A stretch of 31,242 nt of DNA, from NCBI GenBank assembly GCA_947380655.1, contig CANCRX010000035.1:1-31242 (forward strand). The letters are read 5' to 3'. Below the pieces are notes generated by a model, which was given only the letters and a program-made list of their open reading frames with translations, made no database searches and was not told the origin of the DNA. Origin of the DNA: Alcaligenaceae bacterium. Lineage in GTDB: Bacteria; Pseudomonadota; Gammaproteobacteria; Burkholderiales; Burkholderiaceae_B. Each line of letters opens with the position of its first letter. Position 1 is the first letter of the stretch. This document shows positions 10,558 through 29,307 of the stretch, piece after piece. The position numbers and the translations under genes were made by a program.

Positions 10558-10576
10558 GATGTGCTCCTGATCTGCA

Positions 10577-11245: not shown

Positions 11246-11290
11246 CAGTATTCTCCGGCGGCGACTGCATCAGACAGTCGCCGCGTGGGT

Positions 11291-12844: not shown

Positions 12845-15800
12845 TTTGCGACCTCTTCTTCCAGCTTGCCTTCAAGCCAATCCACTTTGTTCATCTTGCG
12901 CAGAATCACGAACTCATCCCGATTACTACCGACTGTGCCGTAATAATTGAAGCCCCAGGCCTGCTGCGCATAACCGCCGATCATGTGCGTCGGCTTGAGC
13001 ACCGTGCGTGTGACCGAGTTGTGGATACCGCCACGCATTCCGCTCATTTCGGATCCGGGTGTATTGATGATCTTTTCCTGAGCGTGGTACATCAGACAGG
13101 TGCCGTTTGGAATCCGCTGACTGACAACGACACGCGCCGTCAATGTGCCGTTCACGTTAAAGATTTCGACCCAGTCGTTATCCACCAATCCAGCGTGCTT
13201 GGCCTCGGTTTCGGAAATCCAGACGTGCGGCCCACCACGACTTAACGTCAGCATGCGCAAGTTGTCGGAATAGGTTGAGTGAATCCCCCACTTCTGGTGA
13301 GGCGTTAACCAGTTCAGCACAATCTCTTTATTGCCATTGGTCTTGACACCCAGCATCGGCTTGATGGTCTTGGTATCGATCGCAGGCTTGTACACGCACG
13401 AGCCTTCACCAAAGTCGAGCATCCAGCGATGATCCTGATAAAACTGCTGACGCCCGGTGAGCGTGCGCCACGGTATGAGCTCGTGCACGTTGGTATAGCC
13501 GGCGCTGTAGCTGACTTCTTCGCTTTCAAGCCCGGACCAGGTCGGTGCGGAAATAATCTTGCGCGGTTGCGCCTGGACATCGCGAAAGCGAATCTTGTCG
13601 TGCTCCCGCCCAAGGGCCAGATGGGTGTGGTCGCGACCCGTGATTTTTGACAAGGCTTCCCAGGCTTTAACTGAGACGTGTCCGTTTGTCTCAGGCGCGA
13701 AGGTCAGGATCATCTCTGCCGCATCGATGGCCGTATCCAGACGTGGGCGGCCTTTGCTGACACCTTCTTGCGTTACGGTCTTGGAGAGGCCTGCCAGCTC
13801 GTGCACTTCATGCTTGGTATCCCAGTTGATGCCTTTGCCGCCGTTGCCGAGTTTTTCCAGCAAAGGGCCGACCGAGGTGAACTTACGATAGATATCGTTG
13901 TAGTTACGTTCAACCACGGTCATGTTGGGCGCAGTCTTGCCCGGAATCAGGTCGCACTCGCCATGCTTCCAATCTTTGGGTTCAAGCGGTTGCCCCAGTT
14001 CTCCGGGGGTGTCGTGCAACAACGGTGTCAGCACGATATCTTTTCTTGTGCCGAGATAAGGACCGGCGATGTCGCTGAACTTCTTGGCGATCAGCTTATA
14101 AATTTCCCAATCTGTCTTGCTTTCCCACAAAGGCTGCACGGCTTCGCTCAAAGGATGAATGAAGGGGTGCATGTCGGACGTGTTCAGATCATCCTTTTCA
14201 TACCAGGTGGCGGTAGGCAGAACGATATCGCCATACAAGCAAGTCGTGCTCATACGGAAGTCCAGCACCGTGATGAGGTCAAGCTTGCCTTCGGCCGCCT
14301 CTTCGCGGAATTTCACTTCGCTTGGGCGAATCGCGTCGGCCTCATCGCCAAACATCGCGTTCTGAGTGCCCAAGAAGTACTTCAGGAAGTATTCGTGGCC
14401 TTTACCGCTTGACCCCAGAATATTCGAGCGCCAGACAAACATGTTGCGCGGGAAGTTGGCTGGATTGTCCGGATCGTCGCAGCTCATGTTCAGACTACCG
14501 TTCTTGAGCATTTCAGCGGCATAAGCGACAGGATCCTTACCCTGCGCGACTGCAGCGTCCACGACATCCAGTGGGTTGGTCTGAAGCTGAGGCGCCGAAG
14601 GCAACCAGCCCATGCGCTCGGACTTGGCGTTCAAGTCCAGCATGCTCATGTTGGCGTACTTGCTTGTGTCGGCTGTCGGCGCAAGAATCTCGTCAACGTG
14701 CAGCTTTTCATGTCGCCACTGGCTTGTGTGCGCATAGAAGAAGCTGGTGCCATTCATCTGACGGGGAGGACGCGACCAGTCTAGGCCAAAGGCCAGGGGA
14801 GCCCAGCCAAACTGGGGACGCAGTTTTTCTTGTCCGACGTAGTGCGCCCAGCCACCACCACTCTTGCCGACGCAACCACACATCATCAGCAGGTTGATGA
14901 TACCGCGATAGGTCATGTCCATGTGATACCAGTGATTCAGCGCTGCGCCGACGATGATCATCGACTTGCCCTGCGTGTCGTGCGCATTCTGTGCGAATTC
15001 GCGCGCAACCTGAATCACCAGCTTGCGTGGCACGGTTGTATGCTTTTCTTGCCAGGCGGGTGTGTAAGGCACATCATCGTCAAAACTGTTTGCGACATTG
15101 CCGCCACCCAAGCCTCGATCGACACCATAGTTGGCCATCTGTAAGTCATAGACGGTAGTCACAAGCGCGCTTGCGCCGTCCGCCATTGTGACGCGCTTGA
15201 CCGGCACGTTGCGCACCAGCAGCTCTTCGTGCTCGCCACCAAAGTAGGGGAAGCTCACGCCGACCACTTCGTGATCCTGATCGACCATGCTCAGCACGGG
15301 ATCAACTTCTTGACCTGAAGCGGCATCTTTCTTTTCGAGGTTCCAGCGTCCGACTTGTTTACCGTCGTTAACAGCGCCTTCGCCCCAACGCAATCCAATT
15401 GTGCCGTTCGGGACAACCAGATTGCCGGTATTGCGATCGATTAAGAGTGTCTTCCAATCAGGATTATTGGTTTCGCCATGATTGTTCGACAGATGCGAAG
15501 CGCGCAAGAAATGATCCGGCACCAGACCGCCATTGTGCTCACGCAACTTCACCAGCATCGGCATATCAGTGTATTGCTTGGCATAGTCACGGAAATAAGC
15601 CGACTTGCCGCTCAGGTGAAACTCTTTCAGGATCACGTGACCCATGGCCATCGCAAGCGCGGCATCCGTGCCCTGCTTAGGCGCCAACCAGATATCGCCA
15701 AACTTGACCATTTCGCCAAAGTCGCTCGATACAGCAACGGTTTTGGTGCCCTTGTAACGGACTTCGGTATAAAAGTGCGCATCTGGCGTACGTGTCTGCG

Positions 15801-16569
15801 GAACGTTTGAACCCCAGACCATCAGGTAGGTCGAGTTGTACCAGTCGGCCGACTCGGGGACGTCGGTTTGCTCGCCCCAGATCTGTGGACTGGCTGGTGG
15901 CAGGTCGCAATACCAGTCGTAGAAGCTCAGACAAGCGCCACCGATCAAGCTCAGATATCTGGCACCGGCTGCGTACGACACCATCGACATGGCCGGGATA
16001 GGTGAAAAACCAACAATGCGGTCAGGACCAAACTTCTTGATCGTCATCGCGTTGGCTGCTGCGATGATCTCGGTGACGGTGTCCCAATCGGCGCGAACAA
16101 AACCACCTAAGCCTCGCACGCTCTTGTAGTGTTTTGCGCGCTCGGGATTTTGGCTGATGTATTCCCAGGCCGCGATCGGATCCATGGTTTTACGTGCGTC
16201 GCGCCACATTTCCATCAGGCGACCGCGCACCATCGGATGCTTGACGCGTTGGGCCGAATAGACGTACCAGCTGTACGAAGCACCGCGTGGACAGCCGCGC
16301 GGCTCGTGATTCGGCAGATCGGGGCGTGTACGGGGATAGTCGGTTTGCTGGGTTTCCCAGGTGATCAAACCACTTTTGACATAGACCTTCCAGGAGCACG
16401 AACCGGTACAGTTCACGCCGTGTGTGGACCGGACGATCTTATCGTGCTGCCAGCGCTGACGATAGGCGTCTTCCCATTTACGGTCTTCATCGACCACGAC
16501 GCCGTGACCCGCTGAAAACTCTTCCTTAGTTTTTGAAAAAAACCGTAAGCGATCTAAAAAATGACTCAT
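12841..16569 (-). CDS. narG: Respiratory nitrate reductase alpha subunit (Mo-bisMGD)
   Basis: 1242 aa with the vestigial twin-arginine motif DRLRFF and the FS0 motif HGVNCTGSCSW near the N-terminus. Length and gene order are typical. Confidence 0.98.
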   Translation of the reverse strand: MSHFLDRLRFFSKTKEEFSAGHGVVVDEDRKWEDAYRQRWQHDKIVRSTHGVNCTGSCSWKVYVKSGLITWETQQTDYPRTRPDLPNHEPRGCPRGASYSWYVYSAQRVKHPMVRGRLMEMWRDARKTMDPIAAWEYISQNPERAKHYKSVRGLGGFVRADWDTVTEIIAAANAMTIKKFGPDRIVGFSPIPAMSMVSYAAGARYLSLIGGACLSFYDWYCDLPPASPQIWGEQTDVPESADWYNSTYLMVWGSNVPQTRTPDAHFYTEVRYKGTKTVAVSSDFGEMVKFGDIWLAPKQGTDAALAMAMGHVILKEFHLSGKSAYFRDYAKQYTDMPMLVKLREHNGGLVPDHFLRASHLSNNHGETNNPDWKTLLIDRNTGNLVVPNGTIGLRWGEGAVNDGKQVGRWNLEKKDAASGQEVDPVLSMVDQDHEVVGVSFPYFGGEHEELLVRNVPVKRVTMADGASALVTTVYDLQMANYGVDRGLGGGNVANSFDDDVPYTPAWQEKHTTVPRKLVIQVAREFAQNAHDTQGKSMIIVGAALNHWYHMDMTYRGIINLLMMCGCVGKSGGGWAHYVGQEKLRPQFGWAPLAFGLDWSRPPRQMNGTSFFYAHTSQWRHEKLHVDEILAPTADTSKYANMSMLDLNAKSERMGWLPSAPQLQTNPLDVVDAAVAQGKDPVAYAAEMLKNGSLNMSCDDPDNPANFPRNMFVWRSNILGSSGKGHEYFLKYFLGTQNAMFGDEADAIRPSEVKFREEAAEGKLDLITVLDFRMSTTCLYGDIVLPTATWYEKDDLNTSDMHPFIHPLSEAVQPLWESKTDWEIYKLIAKKFSDIAGPYLGTRKDIVLTPLLHDTPGELGQPLEPKDWKHGECDLIPGKTAPNMTVVERNYNDIYRKFTSVGPLLEKLGNGGKGINWDTKHEVHELAGLSKTVTQEGVSKGRPRLDTAIDAAEMILTFAPETNGHVSVKAWEALSKITGRDHTHLALGREHDKIRFRDVQAQPRKIISAPTWSGLESEEVSYSAGYTNVHELIPWRTLTGRQQFYQDHRWMLDFGEGSCVYKPAIDTKTIKPMLGVKTNGNKEIVLNWLTPHQKWGIHSTYSDNLRMLTLSRGGPHVWISETEAKHAGLVDNDWVEIFNVNGTLTARVVVSQRIPNGTCLMYHAQEKIINTPGSEMSGMRGGIHNSVTRTVLKPTHMIGGYAQQAWGFNYYGTVGSNRDEFVILRKMNKVDWLEGKLEEEVAK

Positions 16570-16615
16570 TATGACTCTCCAAAGCGTCGCGCCAGGCGAC
16601 CACTAATCTCTTTAC

Positions 16616-18010
16616 TCAACAAGGCATCGGGGCATTGCGACGCGAATACCACCACCACGTCACAAACACGCAGGTTGCATAAAACACGATGAAGCACCAC
16701 AGCGCGGCATGGGGCGTACCTGTCATGTCGATTGCGGTACCAAAACTTTTAGGGATGAAAAATCCGCCATAGGCGCCCACGGCACCGGAGAAACCCAGAA
16801 CAGCGGCGGCTTCTTTGCCACCATCTAGCGTGGCCTGGCGTTGCGATGCTTCGTCTTTATTTGCGGCGTGCAGACGCTCATGCAAGAAGATCACCGGGAT
16901 CATTCTGAAGGTTGAACCATTGCCGATACCGGTCAAGGCAAACAGCAGAATGAACATGCTCAGAAAACCTTCGAAGCTACCTGCGCCGCTTGCGCTTGGC
17001 AGAAAATACAGCACACCCAGCACGGCCAGCATCATTCCGACAAAGGTCCAGAACGTCACGCTCGCGCCACCCACCTTGTCCGAAATCCAGCCACCAACTG
17101 GACGAACCATGGCACCGACCAAAGGACCCAAGAATGCATATTTAGTTGGATTCACGTTCGGAAACTGTGATTGCGTCAGCAAGGCAAGACCCGCTGAGAA
17201 GCCGATAAACGAACCAAAGGTGCCGAGATACAACCAGCACATCAGCCAGTTGTGACGACGCTTGAAGATCACCGCCTGATCAGCGAACGAAGCTTTCGCA
17301 TCGGCGATGTCATTCATGCCGAACCAAGCCAGCAACGTGGACAGGATGATGAAAGGCACCCAGACAAAACCAGCGTTTTGCAACCAGATTGTTTTCTGCA
17401 CACCATCTGCAGCGGCATAGTTGTGACCATCGCCCCCCACTGTGCCGAACACAGCAAGTGAGATCACGACCGGCACCACAAATTGGACAACCGACACGCC
17501 AAGGTTGCCAATCCCTGCATTCAAGCCGGTAGCAAGACCCTTTTTTGCTTTAGGAAAGAAAAAGCTGATGTTTGACATTGAGGAGCTAAAGTTGCCGCCA
17601 CCAAAGCCACACAGCAAAGCCAGCACAAGCAGCGTGGGATAACTGGTTGTCGGATCGCGCAAAGCAAAGCCCATGCCAAGGGCAGGGATCAACAGACTGG
17701 CTGTTGAAATCGCGGTCCAGCGGCGTCCGCCAAAAATCGGCACGAGAAACGAATAGAAAATCCGCAACGTCGCGCCGGACAATGCGGGCAACGCAGTCAG
17801 CCAGAACATCTGGTTCTTGCTGAAGTTGAAGCCGGCCTTACCCAGATTGACCACCACTACCGACCAGAGCATCCAGACGATGAAGGCCAGCATCAACGCG
17901 AAGATTGAAATCCAGAGATTACGACTGGCGACGCGACTACCTTGCTCTTTCCAGAACTCGGTTTTTTCGGGTTCCCAGCGATTAAGGACATATCCTGAAG
18001 ACATCATCAA
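16616..18010 (-). CDS. narK2: MFS nitrate/nitrite antiporter, NarK2 type (464 aa)
   Basis: 12-TM MFS protein whose size and N-terminus resemble E. coli NarK. It lies directly upstream of narG. Confidence 0.9.
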   Translation of the reverse strand: MMMSSGYVLNRWEPEKTEFWKEQGSRVASRNLWISIFALMLAFIVWMLWSVVVVNLGKAGFNFSKNQMFWLTALPALSGATLRIFYSFLVPIFGGRRWTAISTASLLIPALGMGFALRDPTTSYPTLLVLALLCGFGGGNFSSSMSNISFFFPKAKKGLATGLNAGIGNLGVSVVQFVVPVVISLAVFGTVGGDGHNYAAADGVQKTIWLQNAGFVWVPFIILSTLLAWFGMNDIADAKASFADQAVIFKRRHNWLMCWLYLGTFGSFIGFSAGLALLTQSQFPNVNPTKYAFLGPLVGAMVRPVGGWISDKVGGASVTFWTFVGMMLAVLGVLYFLPSASGAGSFEGFLSMFILLFALTGIGNGSTFRMIPVIFLHERLHAANKDEASQRQATLDGGKEAAAVLGFSGAVGAYGGFFIPKSFGTAIDMTGTPHAALWCFIVFYATCVFVTWWWYSRRNAPMPC

Positions 18011-18013
18011 CTC

Positions 18014-19276
18014 CTATTTTGCATTTGCAGCAAGTGCTGCGCGTCCTTTTGCAACACCTTCCGCCCGAAAGCTGAAGTGCATCCAGACAAGCGACACGCA
18101 GACCGTGCCGTACAACAGCATGAAACTTGAAGAGCGAACACCGGTGATATCGACCAGCGCGCCAAACATGATCGGCAAGACGAACCCGCCCAGACCACCA
18201 GCCAGACCAACCACGCCGGAGACCGCACCGATGTTGGCGCCAAAATCGTCTGAGATGAACTTGAAGACAGACGCTTTACCGATCGCCGTCGCGATACCGA
18301 CCAGAAACAGCAAGATGGTGAACATGACCGGATTCAAACCGATGTGAAAATCACGCGGACCATCGACTGTCAGTACAGTGAAGTTTGTCTGGGGATAGCT
18401 CAGGATGAAGAATGCAACCCAGCACACCCACATCACCCACCAAGTTGTTTTGTAGGCACCGTAACGATCAGAAATCCAGCCACCGAACGCGCGCAACACG
18501 CCACCCGGCAATGAAAAACAGGCTGCCAGTAAAGCTGCGGTCTGAATATTGAAACCATACTCGCCGACGTAATACTTGGTCATCCAGAGTGCCAGCGCGA
18601 CATAGCCGCCAAACACCACCGAGTAATACTGGCAATAGCGCCAGACCCGTGGATCCTTCAGCATCTTGAACTGCTCGCTGAAACTGGCGGTCGATGCCAC
18701 GTTATGGGCAGGATTAGTCGCTGAAAACATCCAGAAGAGCAAAGCCGTCACCAGCATGGCGATGGAATACACCTGAGGCACGATGGTCCAGGTGCCGCCC
18801 GCCGCAGCAATCAAGGCAGGCGCAACAAATTTAGTCAACGCCGAACCCGAGTTGCCTGCGCCGAAGATTCCCATCGCCAAACCCTGACGATTCTTTGGAA
18901 ACCAGCGGGCGACATAAGGGGTACCGACTGAGAACGATCCACCTGCCAGACCGACAAACAGGCCCAACACTAAAAAGTGCCAGTACTGTGTCGCGTAAGA
19001 CATCAGCCAGATTGGCACGACACTTGCGAGCATCAGGCAAAAGAACACGATCCGACCACCATAACGATCGGTCCAGATACCAAGGGGTACGCGAATCAGG
19101 GATCCGCTCAACACAGGCGTCGCCGCGAGCAGACCAAACTCCGTTTCATTTAAGCCCAACTGTTTTTTGATCGGAATGCCGATCACGGCAAACATCATCC
19201 AGACGGCGAAACAGATCGTGAATGCAAAGGTGCTGGATCCCAGCACCATATTGGCCTTGCGTGATTGCGAATCCAT
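18014..19276 (-). CDS. narK1: MFS nitrate transporter, NarK1 type (420 aa)
   Basis: 12-TM MFS protein and first gene of the operon. GAGAGGA RBS. It lies 3 nt from narK2. Confidence 0.88.
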   Translation of the reverse strand: MDSQSRKANMVLGSSTFAFTICFAVWMMFAVIGIPIKKQLGLNETEFGLLAATPVLSGSLIRVPLGIWTDRYGGRIVFFCLMLASVVPIWLMSYATQYWHFLVLGLFVGLAGGSFSVGTPYVARWFPKNRQGLAMGIFGAGNSGSALTKFVAPALIAAAGGTWTIVPQVYSIAMLVTALLFWMFSATNPAHNVASTASFSEQFKMLKDPRVWRYCQYYSVVFGGYVALALWMTKYYVGEYGFNIQTAALLAACFSLPGGVLRAFGGWISDRYGAYKTTWWVMWVCWVAFFILSYPQTNFTVLTVDGPRDFHIGLNPVMFTILLFLVGIATAIGKASVFKFISDDFGANIGAVSGVVGLAGGLGGFVLPIMFGALVDITGVRSSSFMLLYGTVCVSLVWMHFSFRAEGVAKGRAALAANAK

Positions 19277-19440
19277 GCTCGCGTCCTCTCTGACTTTGAC
19301 AGTGGTGTCAGATTAAGTCGATGGATAGAGGCTGAACATTCGCCAGAGGCGGGGGGTCTCCAACAACATTCGGGCTAGTGCCCCCCCTACTAAAGAACTA
19401 GGCGGGCTCATCCCTTTGTGTCATGGCGGCCAGCTGACAA

Positions 19441-20157
19441 ATGCCTGAAAATCACGCCATGAACGGACATGACCTCGAAAAATTCATCTCGGGCTTCGAG
19501 CGCTTTCAGCAACATCACTACGGCGACGATCCCGCCTTGCTCAATGAACTTCAGCAAGGACAGCATCCGCGCACGTTACTGATCGGCTGTTGCGATTCGC
19601 GCGTGGATCCCGGATACCTGATCGGAGCCGAACCAGGTGACATCTTTGTTTCAAGAACCGTTGCGAATCTGGTTCCTCCCTGTTCGCCCGATGATGGTGG
19701 CTATCACGGCGTCAGCGCGGCGATCCAGTTCGCCCTGCAAAACCTCAAAGTTGAACGAATCATCATTCTTGGTCATGCTCAGTGCGGAGGCATTCGGGCC
19801 TTAATGGAGCCGGAACCCGAGAAAAAGAATGATTTCGATTTCATCCGCAAATGGATGAAAATTGCCGAACCTGCCAAACGCAGCACACTGGCGAAGTTCG
19901 GTCATGCCAGTAACGAGGTGCAGTGCCGCGTCTGTGAGCAATCGTCCATTCTGAACTCACTGAATAACCTGATGACCTTTCCCTGGGTCAAAGACGCGGT
20001 GAAAGAGGGACACCTCACCGTCCACGGCTGGTATTTCGATCTCGCCGCGGGTGAGCTTCTGGCCTATTCAGAAAGATCCGGCAGCTTTTTACCAATGGTC
20101 TGTGCACTTGAACCCTCCGGTCCGGAACGCAGACCCAGTCGCATCACCACGGCTTAA
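19441..20157 (+). CDS. Beta-class carbonic anhydrase (238 aa; start could be ATG 19456)
   Basis: Zinc-ligand motifs CCDSRVDP and GHAQCGG. Its stop lies 3 nt before the narX ORF opens. Confidence 0.88.
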   Translation: MPENHAMNGHDLEKFISGFERFQQHHYGDDPALLNELQQGQHPRTLLIGCCDSRVDPGYLIGAEPGDIFVSRTVANLVPPCSPDDGGYHGVSAAIQFALQNLKVERIIILGHAQCGGIRALMEPEPEKKNDFDFIRKWMKIAEPAKRSTLAKFGHASNEVQCRVCEQSSILNSLNNLMTFPWVKDAVKEGHLTVHGWYFDLAAGELLAYSERSGSFLPMVCALEPSGPERRPSRITTA

Positions 20158-20256
20158 GCCTTGAAAGTCTCTTCTAAAATCATGCAGCCCCCGATGAACG
20201 CAATATCAGGCGATAATGAAATTCTTAGCGATTCAAATATTGCACAGGGTCAACGC

Positions 20257-22185
20257 ATGGCAGTCAATTGGCGATCCCCTCTCGGAAGAAATTATAAACT
20301 GGGTGTGCGACTCGTCTCTGTTTCACTAGTAGGCTTGTTATTTGGCCTGACCATGGTGATGGGGACGTTATGGCTATCCTGGGCGCTCGAGGGTGCGGCA
20401 GCGGCAGTCAACGATACCGGTAGCTTACGCATGCAATCGGTACGGATCGGCTTGAACCTGAGTCAACCGAAACTGAATCTGTCCGAGCTCAAGCAGCAAA
20501 TTCAAGCGATGGAGCAGACCCTCAACAATCTTCAAGACGGCGACCCGCAACGCCCACTTCGCATGCCTGAACGTGTCACGGTTAAAAAGCAGTTCACGCA
20601 ACTCTCCGACGCCTGGCACAACAAATTGATCCCGATTCTGCATTCCTACGAGAATCACACCGAGCAACGCGCCCAGTGGGCAACGCTTTATCTGAACGAG
20701 TTGCCACAGTTTGTGACGGCGACCGATCGTCTGGTCTGGCAGATTGAGGCCGAAAACGCCTACGACACCTCGATATTGCGCGCCTCTCAGCTTGCCCTGA
20801 TCGTCCTGATGGTGGTGGGCAGTGTCGCGATGATTTATTTGCTGTACGGCTGGGTGATTCGTCCCGTGCAAGCGTTGCAGCAGGGGATTACACACATGAC
20901 CGCGCGAAATTTTGATGCGCGCGTGCCGGTTGAAGGTCATGATGAATTTGGTGAACTGGCCACCGGCTTTAATGATATGGCAGCGCAACTCAAAGAACTG
21001 TACAGTGATCTCGAAGCCCGAGTAGAAGAAAAAACCAGACAGCTTGCGGTTCAGAATAAGGAACTGGCGACGCTTTATGAGTTTTCTGCTTATCTGAGCC
21101 AGGCCGGCGAACTTGAACAACGCTGCGAAGGTTTTCTTTCAAAGTTGATCGAACATTTCGGCGCTTCAGGCGGCACTGTCCGCATTCTGGATTTACGTCA
21201 GAATAATTTGCACATGACGGTTCATCAGGGAATTTCGGAAGACTTTGCCAAAGATGAGCTGTGCCTGCACGCAGGAGATTGCTTATGCGGCGAGGCGGCG
21301 CAGCAAGGCGAGATGAAACTGCACGATTTCCGGACACTACCCCAGGTGCTGCAATACCGATGCCAGGAAGAAGGCTTCAACTCGATTGCTATCGCGCAAA
21401 TCAAGCTGGGTAACAATCATCTTGGCAGCTACACCCTGCACTTCAAAACCCCCAGAGAATTCTCGGGCGACGACCGCAGACTCTTTGAAGCAGTCGGCCA
21501 GCATCTGGGTATGGCAATTGAAAACCAGCGCCTGCTGACTCGCACCCGCCAACTCGCAGTAGCAGAAGAGAGAAATCTGGTAGCACAAGGCCTGCATGAT
21601 TCGATTGCGCAAGGGCTCAACTTCTTGAAACTGCAGATTCAAATGCTGCAGGATTCAATCAAGCGCGACGCCAAGGACGAAGTACAAGAAGTGCTCATGA
21701 TGATCGATGCAGGAGTACGCGAGAGTTATGACGATGTGCGCGAACTGTTGACAAACTTTCGCATCAAACTTGGCGAAGGTGACCTGCTTGATGCATTGAA
21801 ACTATCGGCGGACCGCTTTAAACATCAGACGGGCTTGCCGGTTGAGCTCAGCATCGACAATGAGGGTCTGCCACTGCCCTCTGAACAAGAGCTTCAGGTA
21901 CTGTTTATTGTTCAGGAAGCCTTGTCGAATATTCGCAAGCACGCCCATTCAAAGCACGTGAGGATCAACCTAAAAAATGATCGCGACTTTGAACTGAGCG
22001 TCAGTGATGATGGTTGCGGCTTTGAGAGCGATCGAACGACTACGGAATCCGAGCATCACATCGGCCTTAAAATCATGAAGGAACGCGCGGCGCAACTTAA
22101 CGCGACGCTCATCGTGACGTCCAGCAACAACCAAGGCACAACCGTTAGCTTGAACATCCCCCATTCTGCACGCATAGCGGCCTGA
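20257..22185 (+). CDS. narX: Nitrate/nitrite sensor histidine kinase (start uncertain; the ORF is open from 20161)
   Basis: P-box-like DTGSLRMQSVRI after TM1, a HAMP region, a central Cys-containing GAF-like module, a HisKA_3 H-box (AQGLHDSIAQ) and an HATPase domain. ATG 20257 gives an E. coli-like N-terminus. The track start at 20161 is a TTG. Confidence 0.9.
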   Translation: MAVNWRSPLGRNYKLGVRLVSVSLVGLLFGLTMVMGTLWLSWALEGAAAAVNDTGSLRMQSVRIGLNLSQPKLNLSELKQQIQAMEQTLNNLQDGDPQRPLRMPERVTVKKQFTQLSDAWHNKLIPILHSYENHTEQRAQWATLYLNELPQFVTATDRLVWQIEAENAYDTSILRASQLALIVLMVVGSVAMIYLLYGWVIRPVQALQQGITHMTARNFDARVPVEGHDEFGELATGFNDMAAQLKELYSDLEARVEEKTRQLAVQNKELATLYEFSAYLSQAGELEQRCEGFLSKLIEHFGASGGTVRILDLRQNNLHMTVHQGISEDFAKDELCLHAGDCLCGEAAQQGEMKLHDFRTLPQVLQYRCQEEGFNSIAIAQIKLGNNHLGSYTLHFKTPREFSGDDRRLFEAVGQHLGMAIENQRLLTRTRQLAVAEERNLVAQGLHDSIAQGLNFLKLQIQMLQDSIKRDAKDEVQEVLMMIDAGVRESYDDVRELLTNFRIKLGEGDLLDALKLSADRFKHQTGLPVELSIDNEGLPLPSEQELQVLFIVQEALSNIRKHAHSKHVRINLKNDRDFELSVSDDGCGFESDRTTTESEHHIGLKIMKERAAQLNATLIVTSSNNQGTTVSLNIPHSARIAA

Positions 22186-22187
22186 TC

Positions 22188-22838
22188 ATGGAACATCCCA
22201 TTCGCATTCTGTTAGTTGACGATCACAGCCTTTTTCGCAGTGGCATCCGCTTTCTGCTGTCTCGTCACCCTGAGTTTGAAGTCGTCGGCGAAGCCGCTGA
22301 CGGTTTAGAGGGGATCAAGCGGGCTAAAGAACTCAAACCCGACATCGTGTTGCTGGATTTGCATATGCCCGGTATTGCAGGGATTGAAGCCACGCAACTG
22401 CTCAGACAAGACATCCCTCAGACACATGTCATCCTGCTGACTGTTTCTGAAGATGCGGAGGATTTATCTGCCGGGCTGAAGGCAGGTGCTGCTGGTTATT
22501 TACTCAAAAATATTGATGCGGATTATTTGCTTGAGTCACTAAAGCGCGTGATGAATGGTGATTCAGTCATCTCAGCCGACATGACGAAAAAACTGTTTGC
22601 CCAGATCCGCAAGGATACCCCTCCACCCCCAGTAGCCCCTGAAGCGGACAAGCTGACTCCGCGTGAGCGTGATATTATTTCGCAACTGGCGGCAGGCTTG
22701 AGTAACAAAGAAATCGCCCGCAAACTCGACGTCGCCGAAAGCACGGTCAAAATTCACCTGCAGAGCATTTTGAAGAAACTGGGTCTCTCAAACCGCGTGC
22801 AGGCGGCGATCTACGCTGTTGGCCACGGGATGGCCTGA
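22188..22838 (+). CDS. narL: Nitrate/nitrite response regulator (REC + LuxR-type HTH)
   Basis: 216 aa with the receiver motifs LLVDDH...DIVLLDLHMPG and a C-terminal LTPRERDIISQLAAGLSNKEIARKL HTH. The ATG lies 2 nt after the narX stop. Confidence 0.93.
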   Translation: MEHPIRILLVDDHSLFRSGIRFLLSRHPEFEVVGEAADGLEGIKRAKELKPDIVLLDLHMPGIAGIEATQLLRQDIPQTHVILLTVSEDAEDLSAGLKAGAAGYLLKNIDADYLLESLKRVMNGDSVISADMTKKLFAQIRKDTPPPPVAPEADKLTPRERDIISQLAAGLSNKEIARKLDVAESTVKIHLQSILKKLGLSNRVQAAIYAVGHGMA

Positions 22839-23531
22839 AGCGGTTTGGTCTGATGTTTGGACTACGGCTTGAGCGGACATGAGCTCCGACCTTTCATGCA
22901 TTTGAACTTTTGACCCATGCACTGAAATCAAATGACTTTGCTTCAGTTGATTCAAGGCACGCGAGAAGGTTTCCGGTGTCAGACCGAGCTTTGAAGCAAT
23001 CATGCGCTTGTTGAACTTCAATACCGTTTCATCGCCCTCATAGGGCTGACTCAATAAGTATCCGACAACGCGCTCAACCGCGGTTTTCAGGTTGACCTCT
23101 TCGATATCGAGCAAGAGCGTTTCAAACCGTTGAGACAACCCTTTCAAGAGCTGCAATGCAAATCGGGGATCTTGCTCAAGGGCGCGCTCGATATCGCGCT
23201 TATCGATCCAGAGGAGCAAACTATCGGACAGTGCCTGTGCATTGATCAGATAAGGATGGTCAAGAAACATCACTGCTTCACCGAAGGCCTGACCTGGACC
23301 GATAAATTCAATGACCTTTTCACGTTGCTGCGAAGGGATCGAAATCTTGACTTGCCCGATCACCAGCACATACAAGCCTCGCGCCTGTTCGTCCCGGTGC
23401 AGGATCATGTCATTTTTTTGAACTCTCAACCGCACCGATGCTTGCGCCAGCTCACCTCGAACGTCAGGCCTCAGCCCCTCAAACAGCGTTAAGTGGGATA
23501 ACAACTCCTCAACCTCTTGTAACTTTCCCAT
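22788..23531 (-). CDS. Crp/Fnr-family regulator without any cysteine (Dnr/NnrR-like)
   Basis: cNMP-binding-like fold followed by an HTH with the FNR-type recognition motif ETFSR. There is no Cys, so no FNR-type Fe-S cluster. AGGTGA lies 4-5 nt before ATG 23531 and includes the nrdG stop codon. The 3-prime tail overlaps narL by 51 nt. Confidence 0.85.
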   Translation of the reverse strand: MGKLQEVEELLSHLTLFEGLRPDVRGELAQASVRLRVQKNDMILHRDEQARGLYVLVIGQVKISIPSQQREKVIEFIGPGQAFGEAVMFLDHPYLINAQALSDSLLLWIDKRDIERALEQDPRFALQLLKGLSQRFETLLLDIEEVNLKTAVERVVGYLLSQPYEGDETVLKFNKRMIASKLGLTPETFSRALNQLKQSHLISVHGSKVQMHERSELMSAQAVVQTSDQTASGHPVANSVDRRLHAV

Positions 23532-23535
23532 CGTC

Positions 23536-24246
23536 TCACCTGTAAGAAAACTGTTCAAACAGTCCGTTCAGCGTTTGCATACTTTGCGCGCTGAGTCCGG
23601 TATCGACAACTCGGTGCGCTGGTGAACGGTATCTTTGTACCGCGTATTTCCTCACACCTTTGCGACTGAGTCCTTGCGCCAGATCAATTAAGGCAAACTC
23701 TGACAGCCATTCCGGGCTCCAGGTCGTGCGGCATTCGAAAGGAACCTGACTTTCAAGCAAACTGTCCAAGCAGCGCCAGACTGGCTGCGCGCTTGCCTCG
23801 CGTCCAGTCAAAGCATCGTAGCCCTGCGCCTCTGTTTTGATATCCAGACCGACCCAGGACAGCTTGGGCAGCGCACTCTCAAGCTTTTTCGGGTAGATTC
23901 CTGCCGTATGTACTGCAACCCGATAACCGAGCGCAACAACTTGCACGATCATGTGATCTATCAAAGGTTCGCTAAAAGGCTCTCCTCCTGAAAAGACAAC
24001 TCCATCGAGCAGTTTTTTTCTTGACTCCAGAAACGACAGGATATGTTTCCATTGTGTTTCTTTTTTTTGCTCTTCTACCGCAATATTAATTGCGCACTGA
24101 GCGTCCCGTGTTTGCAGGTGAGGATTGTGGCAGTAGTGACAACGCCAGGGACAGCCTTTGACAAACACCACTGCGGACAATGCCTCGGGCCAATCTACGC
24201 CTGAAAACGGGACGAAGCCACCAAGGGAAGGTTCATCGTGTCGCAT
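23536..24246 (-). CDS. nrdG: Anaerobic ribonucleotide reductase activating protein (radical SAM)
   Basis: CPWRCHYCHNP CxxxCxxC motif and the N-terminus GGFVPFSGVDWP. ATG 24246 is preferred over the track TTG at 24294. Confidence 0.92.
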   Translation of the reverse strand: MRHDEPSLGGFVPFSGVDWPEALSAVVFVKGCPWRCHYCHNPHLQTRDAQCAINIAVEEQKKETQWKHILSFLESRKKLLDGVVFSGGEPFSEPLIDHMIVQVVALGYRVAVHTAGIYPKKLESALPKLSWVGLDIKTEAQGYDALTGREASAQPVWRCLDSLLESQVPFECRTTWSPEWLSEFALIDLAQGLSRKGVRKYAVQRYRSPAHRVVDTGLSAQSMQTLNGLFEQFSYR

Positions 24247-24253
24247 CAGATAT

Positions 24254-24457
24254 TCACAATACGATATCCACTGTTGGCAGGCATGCTTCTTCAAAAAATA
24301 AGCGCTCTTTGAACTCGCCTTTCTTGCCGATATTGAACGAACTGACTGGACGGTGATAACCCATCACTCGTGTCCATACTTCACAGCGGGTGCGGCGACT
24401 TTCATCTAGTGTTGCGATGGTCACATTTTGATATTCGGTCTTATTTAAATCATTCAT
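24254..24457 (-). CDS. Stand-alone class III RNR glycyl-radical domain protein (67 aa)
   Basis: RCEVWTRVMGYHRPVSSFNIGKKGEFKER contains the RVxGY glycyl-radical loop. AGGAG (24465-24469) lies 7 nt upstream of ATG 24457. The frame differs from nrdD. Confidence 0.75.
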   Translation of the reverse strand: MNDLNKTEYQNVTIATLDESRRTRCEVWTRVMGYHRPVSSFNIGKKGEFKERLFFEEACLPTVDIVL

Positions 24458-24477
24458 GAGCTGACTCCTGATCAATT

Positions 24478-26214
24478 TCAAACTAGGGCTGCGGTGTCTT
24501 GTAACTGTTCGGCTATTAAGGCCGCATCGCATTTAGGACAAAACTCGTGATGTCCAGATAAATAACCATGCGTTGGACAAATGGAAAAGGTAGGCGTGAC
24601 GGTGATGTAGGGAAGCCGGAAATTGGATAATGCGCGTCGGACAAGTTGTTTGCAGGCGTTCGCCGACGAAATCGCTTCATTCATGTACAGATGCAGCACC
24701 GTGCCGCCCGTATATTTCGATTGCAAGGTTTCTTGCAAGGTCAGTGCCTCAAAAGGATCATCCGTATAGTTGACCGGCAACTGGCTGGAGTTGGTGTAAT
24801 ACGGCTCCGCGTCGCTACCCGCCTGCAGAATGTCAGGCCAGCGTTTTTTGTCTTCACGGGCGAAACGATAGGTTGTCCCTTCGGCCGGAGTCGCCTCCAG
24901 GTTGTACATATGCCCTGTCTGCTCCTGAAACTGCGTCATCTGACTACGCACATGATCAAGCATTCTTTCGGCCATCGCCTGACCCTGCGGACTGGTGATA
25001 TCAAAACGATCATGCGTGAAATTTCGGATCATCTCGTTCAATCCATTCACTCCAAGCGTACTGAAATGATTTCTTAAGGTTCTCAAATAGCGCTTGGTGT
25101 AAGGGTACAGCCCTTTATCAATGTATTTCTGCACGACCGTTCTTTTCACTTCCAGTACATCGCGTCCCAAAACAAGCAGCTCTGTCAGGCGCTTGAGTAA
25201 ACCCGCTTCATCCCCAGCAAACAAATAACCCAAGCGCGCGCAATTGATCGTCACCACGCCGATGCTGCCGGTTTGTTCGGCGGAACCAAACAAACCATTG
25301 CCTCTTTTAAGCAGTTCGCGTAAATCCAGTTGAAGTCTGCAGCACATGGATCTGACCATGTGAGGCTGCAAATCCGAATTCAGAAAATTCTGGAAATAAG
25401 GCAAACCGTATTTGGCGGTCATTTCAAACAAACGCTCCGCATTCGGGTGATCCCAGTCAAAGTCAGGCGTGATGTTGTAGGTCGGAATCGGAAAGGTAAA
25501 CGCGCGCCCATGCGCATCGCCGCGCATCATGACTTCGATATAGGCGCGATTAATCATGTCCATTTCGTCTTGCAGCTCGCCATAACTGAAAGGCATTTCC
25601 TCGCCACCGATATACGGAATCTGTTCACGCAAATCCTGTGGACACGTCCAATCAAAAGTTAGATTGGTAAACGGTGTTTGCGTCCCCCACCGGCTAGGCA
25701 CATTCAGGTTGTAGACCATCTCCTGCAGACACTGCCTGACTTGCTCGTAGCGCATCTGGTCCTTGCGGATAAAAGGCGCCAGATAGGTATCGAACGAGCT
25801 AAACGCTTGTGCGCCCGCCCATTCGTTTTGAAGCGTCCCGAGAAAGTTCACGATCTGACCGACCGCGGCCGACAGATGCTTGGCGGGTGTTGCTTCAACC
25901 TTGCCCGGTACACCATTAAAACCTTCGTTCAACAACTGACGCAGTGACCAGCCTGCGCAATAACCTGCCAGCATATCGAGATCATGGATATGAAGATCAC
26001 CCTCTCGATGCGCCAGCCCGGCTTCAGGCGTAAAGACATGAGACAACCAGTAGTTTGCCGTGACCTTGCCCGCCACGTTCAAGATCAACCCACCCAGGCT
26101 GTAGCCTTGATTCGCATTGGCTTGAATGCGCCAGTCCCGCAAATCCAGATACTCATCCATCGCATGTTCGACATCAACGAATGTCTGTTTCGCAGTCTCT
26201 GAATGGCTTTGCAT
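24478..26214 (-). CDS. nrdD: Anaerobic (class III) ribonucleoside-triphosphate reductase large protein, lacking the glycyl-radical C-terminus (578 aa)
   Basis: NrdD-like sequence throughout, ending with the zinc-ribbon-like ICPTHGY...FCPKCD. GAGGTG lies 5 nt upstream of ATG 26214. The track start at 26253 is less likely. Confidence 0.9.
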   Translation of the reverse strand: MQSHSETAKQTFVDVEHAMDEYLDLRDWRIQANANQGYSLGGLILNVAGKVTANYWLSHVFTPEAGLAHREGDLHIHDLDMLAGYCAGWSLRQLLNEGFNGVPGKVEATPAKHLSAAVGQIVNFLGTLQNEWAGAQAFSSFDTYLAPFIRKDQMRYEQVRQCLQEMVYNLNVPSRWGTQTPFTNLTFDWTCPQDLREQIPYIGGEEMPFSYGELQDEMDMINRAYIEVMMRGDAHGRAFTFPIPTYNITPDFDWDHPNAERLFEMTAKYGLPYFQNFLNSDLQPHMVRSMCCRLQLDLRELLKRGNGLFGSAEQTGSIGVVTINCARLGYLFAGDEAGLLKRLTELLVLGRDVLEVKRTVVQKYIDKGLYPYTKRYLRTLRNHFSTLGVNGLNEMIRNFTHDRFDITSPQGQAMAERMLDHVRSQMTQFQEQTGHMYNLEATPAEGTTYRFAREDKKRWPDILQAGSDAEPYYTNSSQLPVNYTDDPFEALTLQETLQSKYTGGTVLHLYMNEAISSANACKQLVRRALSNFRLPYITVTPTFSICPTHGYLSGHHEFCPKCDAALIAEQLQDTAALV

Positions 26215-26300
26215 AAAACACCTCATCTTGTGTTGTTTGATTAACTCTATCACCAGATGTTGTGTTTTATTCTTTTCAAACCACTCTTTTTTTAAAATGC

Positions 26301-26314
26301 TTGATACCGGTCAA
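26301..26314. promoter_or_regulatory. FNR/ANR/Dnr-type box upstream of nrdD
   Basis: TTGATACCGGTCAA matches TTGAT-N4-ATCAA at 9/10 positions. Its centre lies about 93 nt upstream of the nrdD ATG, compatible with a class II promoter plus a leader of roughly 50 nt. Confidence 0.6.
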
Positions 26315-26337: not shown

Positions 26338-26852
26338 TTAGGTCTGTTTTGCGCCACGCCGCTGCGCCATGCGCGTACCGATTTCTTGCAGGGTGTGCGG
26401 CTCAAGCAACTCAATGAAAGGATAAATTTCCGCTTCTTCGCAGTCCGCATGTTGCGGATAGGCTTGAATGAATTGCTTCAGCGTGTCTGGGGGCGAGGCT
26501 GCTTTTTTTTTTCGATCTGTTCAAGCCACTGCCGCACGTCGGCCCACAGGCTGGCCAGTTCTGTGTGTTCATCCTGCAAGCGGTGGATCGCCGCTGCGAG
26601 CACCTTTTTCTGATCACCTTGAAAGGCATCCTCGCTTAAGGCCAATAATGCGGGATACACATCCAAGTCTTCATCATCATGATGCAGCGGTGCTGCGATA
26701 TTGAAATACCGCAACACCTTTTGCGCCGCTTGCGCTGCGACATCATCCGCACCGTGCTGAGCGATATGCGCATGCAACTTATCAGTCAGGAGCGCAAAGC
26801 GCCTGACCTTTTCATGGCATAGCGTCAAAATCTCAACTGGAAGATCAAACAT
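26338..26852 (-). pseudogene. Hemerythrin-like (HHE cation-binding) gene interrupted by a frameshift in an A10 tract, or recoded
   Basis: The zero frame (124 aa) stops at 26478. The -1 frame after the A10 run (T10 at 26503-26512 on the plus strand) continues ...AASPPDTLKQFIQAYPQHADCEEAEIYPFIELLEPHTLQEIGTRMAQRRGAKQT to TAA at 26338-26340. This supplies the missing C-terminal His/Glu motif. Confidence 0.75.
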
Positions 26853-27537
26853 GTTGCTCAGAAATCTGCTTATCTTTCTCTTGAAAGAGAATGTTGTTTT
26901 CCAGATGGATATGCTGCATCAGGTCTTCTCTTAATTGGCTCAAACCAGCATACAACGCGCGCCAGGTATTGCATGCTTCAGCAGGCGGCGTGATGTCATT
27001 GGTCAGATATTCAAGACGCTCTAACGCTTCACCATGCTGATCGTGTTCAAACCGCATCATCGACACGGGAGCAGACACCTCAGAAGGCGATACGCGTCTG
27101 AGCATCGGAAACAACACTTGCTCTTCTTTCATCATATGGCTCTCAAGCTCTTGCTGCATATCGGCCAAATGATCGGCCAGACCAAGAGGACATGAGGGAC
27201 GATCGCCGTGCACCTGCTCCACTCTGCGTGCCAGTCGGATCAACTCGGGCAATTGCTCGCGATGCACTTCATGATAACGATGCAAAATATGATCGATCAA
27301 CGTATCAACCGGGACCTGACGCCAATCCTGATACGACGCGTTGCTCAATGCAGTCAGGCTTGAAAGCGCCTCTAAAAGCGGCAGGGGATCTTCCACCTTA
27401 CGGCGTTCAAGCGCCTCGCGCAGGCTTTTGCCGCCACCACAACAAAAATCCAGTTTGTATTGATGAAACACGCGCGTCGCGCCGGGAATTTCGCAAGCGA
27501 TGGAGCCAATCGTACGGTCAAGTAATTGTGTGCTCAT
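26845..27537 (-). CDS. ytfE: Iron-sulfur cluster repair di-iron protein (RIC/ScdA/YtfE family)
   Basis: 230 aa with the ScdA_N motif KLDFCCGGGKSL followed by hemerythrin-like His/Glu motifs. It overlaps the downstream hemerythrin gene start by 8 nt. Confidence 0.92.
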   Translation of the reverse strand: MSTQLLDRTIGSIACEIPGATRVFHQYKLDFCCGGGKSLREALERRKVEDPLPLLEALSSLTALSNASYQDWRQVPVDTLIDHILHRYHEVHREQLPELIRLARRVEQVHGDRPSCPLGLADHLADMQQELESHMMKEEQVLFPMLRRVSPSEVSAPVSMMRFEHDQHGEALERLEYLTNDITPPAEACNTWRALYAGLSQLREDLMQHIHLENNILFQEKDKQISEQHV

Positions 27538-27591
27538 GATGTGTTCCTTATTGACTTTGAAGAGGCACTTTCGTGCAGACCTCTAAACCAT

Positions 27592-27607
27592 TGCAATTAC
27601 CATGCCA
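27592..27607 (-). promoter_or_regulatory. Sigma-54 (-24/-12) promoter for the ytfE-hemerythrin operon
   Basis: The minus strand reads TGGCAT-GGTAA-TTGCA, against the consensus TGGCAC-N5-TTGCW. It lies about 55 nt upstream of ATG 27537. Confidence 0.8.
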
Positions 27608-27612
27608 ACAAT

Positions 27613-27625
27613 TAATTGATTGATT
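27613..27625 (-). promoter_or_regulatory. Possible IHF site
   Basis: The minus strand reads AATCAATCAATTA, which fits WATCAANNNNTTR. It lies between the NorR boxes and the sigma-54 promoter but rather close to the -24 element. Confidence 0.3.
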
Positions 27626-27647
27626 TTAAAGACTTATACCTTTACAA

Positions 27648-27706
27648 GGTATAAAATACCCTTTAATTAATTGTATTTTTTACCCTCATAAAGAGTATTT
27701 TTAACC
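27648..27706. promoter_or_regulatory. Three NorR-type GT-N7-AC enhancer boxes
   Basis: GGTATAAAATACC (27648-27660), GTATTTTTTACC (27673-27684) and GTATTTTTAACC (27695-27706). They are spaced 22-25 bp apart in the norR/ytfE divergent region. Confidence 0.75.
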
Positions 27707-27720
27707 ATCCCATTTTCCTA

Positions 27721-29307
27721 ATGATCATGCGACCAGGTGTTGAAGTTTCGATTGTCGCGGATCTGATTGCCGATCTGCCGCACGCCATCCGCGCCCAGCG
27801 ACTGGTCAACAGCATCCGTGAGTTTTTCGCCTGCGATGCTGTCGGACTTTTAAAAATCGACGGCGATAGCCTGACACCCGTCGCAATGCAAGGTCTCGCT
27901 CTTGAAGCGCTGGGGCGACGCTTTCTGATTGCTCAGCATGCGCGCCTGGCAAGCATTCTGTCCACGCGTGTCCCGGTCCGCTTTCTACCCGGCAATCCAC
28001 TGCCTGATCCCTATGATGGCTTGCTTGAACATCACGCGGACGAAGTGTTGCCGGTTCATGATTGCATGGGTATTAGTCTGTATCTTGAAGGGCAACTCTG
28101 GGGAGCCTTAACACTTGATGCCTTTGGCGGCAAAACCTTTAAAGAGTCCGATTTGGGCAAGCTGTCTTCCTTCGCCCTGCTCGTTCAGGCCGCTGTGCGC
28201 GTTTCTCAACTTGAGCAGGACAACCGTCATTTGCGCTTGCTGCGCGGCAATGAAAGCCCAATGCCTTTTATCGCACAGAAGCAAATGGAAATCGTTGGAC
28301 AAAGTCTCGTCCTGCAAAATCTGTTAAAAGAGCTCGATGTAGTCGCCGAGTCGGATCTGCCTGTTTTATTACTTGGTGAAACAGGTGTCGGCAAAGAACT
28401 GTTCGCGCAACGTATTCATCTGTCTTCGCCCCACCGTCAGGGCGCGCTGATCAAGGTCAACTGTGCGGCACTGCCGGAATCGCTCGCTGAAAGCGAATTA
28501 TTCGGTCACGTTAAAGGCGCGTTTTCCGGCGCAACAACAGACCGTACAGGTCGCATTGAAGCCGCGCAGAATGGCACGCTATTTCTAGATGAAGTGGGAG
28601 ATCTGCCACTCAGTATTCAGGCAAAACTGTTACGCACGCTACAGAACGGAGAAATCCAGAGACTAGGTGAAGACAAGTCCCGTCGGGTCAGCACCCGCAT
28701 TATTTCCGCCACTAACAGGCAACTGCAGGAGCAAGTTCGCAATGGCAGTTTCAGGGCCGATCTCTATCATCGGCTATCGGTCTATCCGGTTCATATTCCT
28801 CCCTTACGCGAGCGCGGCAGTGACATTCTGATTCTGGCGGGCCGTTTTCTTGAACTCAACCGGGCAAGGCTGGGCATGCGAAGCTTGCGCTTGTCCGAAC
28901 CCGCAGAGCGTGCGCTTTGCGCGTTTTCCTGGCCAGGCAATGTCCGTGAACTTGAACATGTCATGAGTCGAGCGGCGCTTCGTTGCTTAAGCTTAGGCGC
29001 CAATCGAAATGACATCATTACGATCGAGCCGGGCTTGCTGGCACTGGAAACGTTTGATGTAGCACCACACGAACACAACGCATCAAGTTCGCAAGATCCT
29101 TCAGGTCCCAACGCACACCGCTCTGCCGAAAACAATGCACCAGAACAAGTAGAGCAATCTTTGAGACAGGCAACAGAATTTTTTCAGCGTAAACAAATCC
29201 GCGCGCGTCTCGAACAACTCAACGGAAACTGGGCAGCCTGCGCGCGCAGCCTGGGGCTGGACACCAGCAATCTGCACAAGCTCGCTAAAAAACTCGGGCT
29301 GAAGTGA
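27721..29307 (+). CDS. norR: NO-responsive sigma-54-dependent transcriptional activator (GAF + AAA+ + Fis-type HTH)
   Basis: 528 aa with an N-terminal GAF-like domain, Walker A GETGVGKE, a GAFSGA (GAFTGA-like) loop and the C-terminal HTH ARSLGLDTSNLHKLAKKLGL. It is divergent from a sigma-54 promoter with NorR boxes. Confidence 0.9.
   Translation: MIMRPGVEVSIVADLIADLPHAIRAQRLVNSIREFFACDAVGLLKIDGDSLTPVAMQGLALEALGRRFLIAQHARLASILSTRVPVRFLPGNPLPDPYDGLLEHHADEVLPVHDCMGISLYLEGQLWGALTLDAFGGKTFKESDLGKLSSFALLVQAAVRVSQLEQDNRHLRLLRGNESPMPFIAQKQMEIVGQSLVLQNLLKELDVVAESDLPVLLLGETGVGKELFAQRIHLSSPHRQGALIKVNCAALPESLAESELFGHVKGAFSGATTDRTGRIEAAQNGTLFLDEVGDLPLSIQAKLLRTLQNGEIQRLGEDKSRRVSTRIISATNRQLQEQVRNGSFRADLYHRLSVYPVHIPPLRERGSDILILAGRFLELNRARLGMRSLRLSEPAERALCAFSWPGNVRELEHVMSRAALRCLSLGANRNDIITIEPGLLALETFDVAPHEHNASSSQDPSGPNAHRSAENNAPEQVEQSLRQATEFFQRKQIRARLEQLNGNWAACARSLGLDTSNLHKLAKKLGLK

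Follow-up and report, generated by a model that had tools for sequence, protein, structure and literature searches.

We analysed a 31,242-nucleotide (nt) stretch of DNA from an Alcaligenaceae bacterium (assembly GCA_947380655.1, contig CANCRX010000035.1, positions 1 to 31,242; hereafter the window) and found that its class III ribonucleotide reductase (RNR), NrdD, is divided between two adjacent genes, the smaller of which very probably encodes an obligate, separately translated glycyl-radical subunit. The large open reading frame (ORF), nrdD, occupies 24478..26214 on the minus strand, from ATG 26214 to TGA 24480-24478, and encodes a 578-amino-acid (aa), 65.7-kDa protein predicted to form the catalytic barrel and zinc ribbon. 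It is followed by a 20-nt spacer (24458..24477, minus strand), in which a Shine-Dalgarno (SD) sequence, AGGAG (24469-24465), lies 7 nt ahead of the ATG (24457-24455) of the small ORF. The small ORF (24254..24457, minus strand, TGA 24256-24254) encodes 67 aa (7.88 kDa), includes RTRCEVWTRVMGYHRPVSSFNIGKKGEFKER, and carries the glycyl-radical motif RVMGY, with Gly33 at 24361-24359. Its frame is +2 relative to nrdD and open back to 24532, and 7 nt separate its TGA from the ATG of nrdG (24246). A check on the minus strand showed that an earlier note on this DNA had placed all of these elements, including the frame, its opening, the stop, the AGGAG box and the ATG, correctly to the base. That note had interpreted them as a division of NrdD between a catalytic protein and a glycyl-radical protein translated on its own, a reading borne out by the profile partition, the collinearity with a fused NrdD and the comparison of related loci given below.

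The two ORFs shared the length of a single NrdD profile between them. Against NCBIfam NF006126 (684 positions), the large ORF covered positions 92-650 with 1049.5 bits (cut-off 548) and the small ORF covered positions 649-682; the large ORF also matched TIGR02487 with 464 bits against a cut-off of 326. With the Pfam NRDD profile PF13597 (562 positions), the large ORF accounted for positions 2-528 (E=4e-174) and the small ORF for positions 532-561 (31.6 bits, gathering threshold 26.2), and this NRDD C-terminus was the sole Pfam match of the small ORF. The radical loop RVxGY was not found on the large ORF, which ends at NF006126 position 650 of 684. Apart from this defining loop on one and the same chain, the characters of a class III NrdD were present: barrel homology, a finger-loop cysteine motif, a zinc ribbon of the form Cx2H...Cx2C and an adjacent NrdG. 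The finger-loop motif is MCCR (residues 290-293; 25336..25347, minus strand), which aligned to SCCR of Thermotoga maritima NrdD 4COI; MGCR, MCCR and SCCR have been defined as classes of this motif (PMC9669993). The predicted zinc ribbon, CPTH-x9-CPKC (residues 546-562; 24529..24579, minus strand), has the form common to fused relatives. The C-terminal end of the large ORF reads ...ICPTHGYLSGHHEFCPKCDAALIAEQLQDTAALV, in which the zinc-ribbon stretch ...ICPTHGYLSGHHEFCPKCD is followed by a variable 16-aa tail, DAALIAEQLQDTAALV.

We aligned both ORFs with a fused NrdD of 627 aa from an Acidithiobacillus ferrooxidans plasmid. The large ORF matched its residues 20-576 with 74% identity over 557 residues and without a gap, the alignment stopping at ...CPRCAA576, and small-ORF residues 25-57 matched its residues 586-618 with 85% identity. 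Because both ORFs are collinear with the fused protein, the alignment places the split point in a short linker of about nine residues that leads from the zinc ribbon to the radical loop. The nearest solved structure was that of T. maritima NrdD (4COI/4U3E, E=2e-31); there, no more than about a dozen residues separate the CxxC from the radical loop. The product of nrdG (23536..24246, minus strand; 236 aa) is a radical S-adenosylmethionine (SAM) protein with the cluster motif CPWRCHYC that matched PF04055 and, with 166.1 bits against a cut-off of 131.15, TIGR02495 (NrdG2), and its profile matches point to a standard NrdG2-type activase.

The same arrangement was examined in 80 related loci at 76-86% identity, 79 of which reach the junction and are informative. 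They come from Sheuella, Achromobacter, Bordetella, Zwartia, Chitinimonas, Chitinilyticum, Silvimonas, Iodobacter, Roseateles, Rubrivivax, Ralstonia, Cupriavidus and other genera. The results showed that NrdD is split at the same place in 79 of 79: the large ORF stops soon after the zinc ribbon, and a separate radical-loop ORF of 55-82 aa follows, each with its own SD-like box and ATG. The break, the SD box and the ATG are thus kept, while the stop codon is TGA, TAA or TAG, the frame offset is 0, 1 or 2, and the spacer ranges from a 4-nt overlap (ATGA) up to 287 nt. Homologues of the small ORF formed 4489 clusters (E<=1e-3), and the best 120 of these 4489 were all stand-alone proteins of 56-90 aa. 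Proteins that are identical or 99% identical were also found on other contigs. Among 84 orthologues, many positions of the small-ORF core were invariant, including R22, W28, T29, H35-P37, F41, N42, G44, K45, E48, R52 and F55, none of which had played a part in choosing the sequences, and the median pairwise ratio of nonsynonymous to synonymous substitution rates (dN/dS) was 0.30 with the variable N-terminus included, which shows the small ORF to be under purifying selection. One might suspect an error of sequencing or assembly, or else a normally fused nrdD that recently became a pseudogene in this strain alone. The earlier note had kept error and recent pseudogenisation in view, with the small frame open to 24532 and a single indel able to fuse the ORFs, and fused relatives at 74% identity lend the idea some colour. 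It can be set aside as practically negligible in the face of 79 split loci from independent genomes with differing stops, spacers and frames, the stand-alone best 120 of 4489 homologue clusters, the identical or nearly identical proteins on other contigs and the purifying selection on the small ORF.

Two further features of the junctions were observed. The spacers of 165-287 nt (loci L063, L064, L075, L077, L079 and L080) contain GC-rich inverted repeats and CACGGAG-type repeat units, and look like insertions resembling repetitive extragenic palindromic (REP) elements between the large and small genes. The large-subunit tail ends in a cysteine pair in 52 of 86 close loci, mostly as CC with 1-4 residues to go before the C-terminus (tails such as ...AKQSACCAPA, ...EACCT and ...ACCES). 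These loci include L003, L005, L007, L010-L021, L055, L060, L063-L065 and L075-L080, and the pair also occurs in L087 and L088; the window's large subunit has none, and among the wider split representatives it was present in 9 of 71. The CC tail of the split large subunits is similar to the C-terminal cysteines that serve as a redox shuttle in class I and class II RNRs.

The split was also found on 133 Ralstonia megaplasmids and a Bradyrhizobium ottawaense plasmid. In Ralstonia strain YC45, a large subunit of 681 aa and a small one of 58 aa overlap by ATGA and are followed by nrdG and a crp/fnr gene, and a Crp/Fnr gene also stands behind nrdG on the R. solanacearum megaplasmid. On pHG1 of Cupriavidus necator H16 (L082, 1277-3307 and 3450-3650), the large ORF encodes 676 aa, and the RVMGY loop sits in the 66-aa ORF WP_011154154, beyond a 142-nt gap. 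The pHG1 large ORF computes to 76.19 kDa, and its G650 is the glycine of the zinc-ribbon sequence CPTHGYL. Siedow and colleagues (1999, J Bacteriol 181:4919) reportedly gave 76.2 kDa for pHG1 NrdD and G650 as its radical glycine. A value of 30.9 kDa for pHG1 NrdG, reportedly from the same paper, failed our check, the in-frame starts giving at most 27.05 kDa, and was not relied on. The split is also present in C. metallidurans, where the CH34 genome paper names NrdDG as Rmet_5137 and Rmet_5139, passing over the gene between them, and cites the genetics of the homologous pHG1 operon (PMC2864759).

An exhaustive HMMER search of 1.84 billion representatives was performed, and the nearest 150 clusters at 50% identity were taken. 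Of these, 71 end soon after the zinc ribbon and so lack the loop, 49 have both parts in one chain and the remainder are fragments. One representative at 50% identity (P0164) has a 64-aa gene with an NRDD match 22 nt downstream. In another, at 61% identity (P0129), the gene order is large subunit, DUF7487, nrdG and small subunit (61 aa). Both the P0129 gene and a relative with 73% identity come from IMG/VR viral contigs, 135 and 237 kb long, on each of which the small gene is about 650 nt downstream of the large one. DUF7487 and nrdG were observed between the two nrdD halves on the phage-like contigs L088 (4616-5677), L087, L091 and L092. A single-polypeptide product is impossible in these phage contigs, because whole genes intervene. 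The phage small proteins match phrog_4132, which is annotated as 'unknown function'. The phage cases come from metagenome and IMG/VR contigs; the small ORF was not found by tblastn in 50,697 isolated phage genomes.

These layouts bear on whether the two ORFs are joined into one chain elsewhere, by programmed frameshifting, translational readthrough or split-intein protein trans-splicing. NrdD often hosts inteins, and fractured NrdA and NrdJ with split inteins are known (PMC2677866). Many relatives in our search (P0121-P0270), many split forms included, are 1000-1880 aa long and matched the query in 2-5 separate stretches, a pattern that one or several inteins within NrdD would give. However, single-indel, frameshift and readthrough models fail because stops, spacers and frames vary over the 79 loci, and in the phages the halves are parted by whole genes. 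Neither ORF matched an intein domain in Pfam, and no splice-junction residues were conserved in the junction sequences. The large-subunit tails around the break are variable and, being short, could not accommodate intein halves, and trans-splicing is ruled out on this ground. We therefore regard a joined chain as very improbable.

It could also be supposed that the small protein is a spare part, like GrcA, for a full-length NrdD encoded elsewhere, and that it does not normally pair with the large ORF. Rescue of oxygen-cleaved pyruvate formate-lyase (PFL) by stand-alone radical domains is known (YfiD and T4 Y06I; PMC8683613), and an orphan 69-aa homologue was found on Allochromatium vinosum pALVIN01 (L084, 3019-3228; …RTRCEVWTRVMGYHRPIDSFNVGK…). 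This orphan adjoins a CHAP-domain gene, has no large nrdD or nrdG within 3 kb, and is possibly a true spare part or a remnant. Against this explanation, the small gene is tightly linked, and apparently translationally coupled, to a loop-less large gene in every related locus; a conserved, intact large gene would be useless without the small protein; and the small ORF has its homology with NrdD rather than with PFL or GrcA. A spare-part role towards another NrdD is therefore very improbable. The idea of an obligate small subunit, which the earlier note had offered as one of two possibilities, is strongly favoured, because no large subunit in the clade has a radical loop of its own.

We propose that the 578-aa protein would contribute the catalytic barrel, finger loop (MCCR) and zinc ribbon while lacking a radical site, and that the 67-aa radical protein would be translated independently, with an SD and ATG of its own, within the same predicted FNR-controlled operon. 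The small protein would dock non-covalently at the place taken by the C-terminus of a single-chain NrdD. NrdG would then abstract hydrogen from Gly33, most likely with the small protein already bound, by analogy with YfiD on cleaved PFL, and the radical would move to the finger-loop cysteine for reduction of nucleoside triphosphates, as in fused enzymes. Cleavage by oxygen would destroy only the 7.9-kDa chain, which might be replaced without resynthesis of the 66-kDa subunit. An adaptive gain for facultative aerobes and denitrifiers from losing this chain only is plausible.

The strongest competing explanation accepts that the split is real and the small subunit obligate, and holds that the split is selectively neutral, the two proteins forming a tight, permanent complex with no benefit from exchange or repair. 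Fused and split forms are interspersed among close relatives, natural fused forms with the same long linker exist in Halorhodospira and others, and the core of the radical domain is the same in fused and split forms. No result counters it directly. That split forms are so frequent, with phages of rearranged gene order among them, and that the characterised hosts are mostly facultative aerobes and denitrifiers, in keeping with the nar genes of the window, are hints against neutrality and nothing stronger. We consider a neutral split a serious contender, with somewhat less than an even chance of being right. The fused forms with a long linker suggest a route to the split in which linker expansion was followed by fission.

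Several points weigh against the two-gene enzyme with an exchangeable radical subunit. In a neighbour-joining tree of 125 large subunits, split and fused forms were interspersed with 19 parsimony changes, which neutral fission would fit; because the tree is rough, being built from intein-rich sequences with simple distances, we do not claim a number of independent fissions. The 7.9-kDa product, its complex with the large subunit and the radical on it are predictions from the genes, and the replaceability of the small subunit after oxygen damage, plausible as it is, is pure inference. Our view of the genome is the 31-kb window, and a second, full-length nrdD may lie elsewhere. An AlphaFold2 model of the concatenated large and small proteins, for which a block alignment with bridging fused fragments was used, had a mean predicted local distance difference test (pLDDT) score of 59.8, with the finger-loop region below 50; it was too poor for docking and was left unused.

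A wider interpretation can be formulated, in which a large, overlooked branch of class III RNR in Proteobacteria and large phages has a consumable, exchangeable radical subunit of 6-8 kDa, which NrdG would activate while it sits on the catalytic subunit and which would be exchanged once oxygen has cleaved it, and in which the freed C-terminus of the large subunit has gained, in many lineages, a cysteine pair that could shuttle reducing equivalents. Taken as a whole, we hold this interpretation to be doubtful, and put it forward tentatively.

The large subunit of the window lacks an N-terminal ATP-cone, its NF006126 match beginning at position 92. An ATP-cone (PF03477) is present in relatives from Achromobacter, Bordetella, Chitinimonas, Ralstonia and pHG1 that are equally close (662-681 aa; P0299-P0390, L081 and L082). 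Loss of the cone and splitting of NrdD are independent. Among the fused relatives, P0136, P0147, P0152, P0160, P0163, P0187, P0238 and P0252 continue for 130-165 aa past the radical domain with the motif ...LFTTxTCPNCK..., an extension that looks like a thioredoxin- or glutaredoxin-type domain. In P0394 (source 'eukprot'), an NrdD C-terminus with the radical loop continues into NrdG-like sequence (…FLQGCPWRCGYCHNP…), the predicted protein being either a triple fusion or the product of faulty gene calling on bacterial DNA within a eukaryote assembly.

The large gene, the small gene, nrdG and a gene for a Crp/Fnr-family regulator (22788..23531, minus strand; cNMP_binding and HTH_Crp_2), which starts 4 nt past the nrdG stop, form a compact minus-strand operon, and no terminator-like site was found on the minus strand between the genes. 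About 90 nt upstream of nrdD lies an FNR/Dnr-type box, TTGACcggtATCAA (26301..26314, minus strand), and a TTGAY-N4-RTCAA box at a similar distance was present in 71 of 86 related loci. Between this box and the nrdD start, the window has two boxes of the form ACAC-N8-GTGT on the minus strand, box 1 (ACACAACATCTGGTGA) at 26250..26265 and box 2 (ACACAAGATGAGGTGT) at 26218..26233, the second overlapping the SD of nrdD. Tandem boxes of this form 32 bp apart were found in 23 of 87 loci, especially in relatives without the ATP-cone, and in 0 of 90 shuffles. The pair look like tandem NrdR operators; we call the boxes NrdR-like from the established consensus of the NrdR box. The surrounding regions (9874-22838 and 26478-29307) contain narGHJI (NarG at 12841-16569), two NarK-like genes and narX/narL, together with genes for a hemerythrin, a ScdA/RIC di-iron protein and a NorR-like activator with GAF and sigma-54 domains. 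By this gene content, the nrd operon sits in an island for anaerobic respiration and nitric oxide (NO) stress.

The split architecture appears to be undescribed, although its genes are visible in databases. No description of a split NrdD was found in the searchable full-text literature, in which reviews, database papers and work on RNR phylogeny were covered as well as articles on glycyl radical enzymes, and absence there is no proof. The small coding sequence is annotated in RefSeq, often as 'nrdD', whereas in other records it is 'hypothetical' or omitted; the gene is often missed, and the matching phage family phrog_4132 is left without a function. An RNR survey filters sequences by length (PMC9531940), and surveys filtered in this way could not register the small gene as separate. 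Glycyl radical enzymes are described with the radical glycine on the catalytic chain, and the field asks whether enzymes besides PFL have spare parts (PMC8683613). If true, an exchangeable radical subunit would be a built-in spare-part system for a glycyl radical enzyme beyond PFL. A widespread RNR whose 7-8 kDa radical domain is always separate would also offer an experimental handle on how the activase gains access to the glycine, on exchange of the radical subunit, and on how facultative anaerobes and denitrifiers cope with pulses of oxygen. The organisms concerned include Ralstonia, Achromobacter, Bordetella, Bradyrhizobium and Cupriavidus. These findings indicate that the split NrdD is real, general and, as far as can be checked, unreported.

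Compared with the single-chain NrdD/NrdG systems of Escherichia coli, phage T4 and T. maritima and with the NF006126 subfamily, the system of the window has the same barrel, double-cysteine finger loop, zinc ribbon, RVxGY sequence and adjacent activase. It differs in that the radical loop belongs to a 67-aa polypeptide of its own, for which translation starts separately, and in that the linker region now forms two ends, an unattached C-terminal tail in the large subunit and, in the small one, a variable N-terminal stretch of about 20 aa; the window's large subunit also lacks the ATP-cone.

With GrcA/YfiD and T4 Y06I, the small protein shares the form of a small stand-alone glycyl-radical protein that would act in trans with a large catalytic protein and be activated by a radical-SAM enzyme (PMC8683613). 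YfiD is activated only once bound to cleaved PFL, no spare part is known for other glycyl radical enzymes, and the validated stand-alone radical domains are YfiD/GrcA and T4 Y06I only, both serving PFL (PMC8683613). GrcA is homologous to the C-terminus of PFL and acts as a reserve for an enzyme already equipped with a radical domain. In contrast, the small protein of the window is a homologue of the NrdD C-terminus, did not match PF01228, and would be the only radical domain of its partner. This partner lacks a radical loop of its own in the window and in all 79 loci, which departs from the replacement after damage that GrcA provides. Judged by its homology and by its loop-less partner, the small protein is not a member of the GrcA/YfiD family.

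The split class II RNR of Pseudomonas aeruginosa, NrdJa/NrdJb, also has an RNR chain in two adjacent genes whose products must associate (PMC9669993), but it belongs to another RNR class and is cut at another position. The comparisons with NrdJa/NrdJb and GrcA/YfiD drawn in the earlier note thus hold as analogies and not as family membership. Two-piece catalytic subunits that remain active are also known from the genes-in-pieces NrdA of phage Aeh1 and from NrdA and NrdJ fractured by split inteins (PMC2677866). Their breaks arose from invasion by homing endonucleases or inteins, whereas in the split NrdD described here neither an endonuclease nor an intein lies at the break, and the two-gene layout is stably inherited over many genera.

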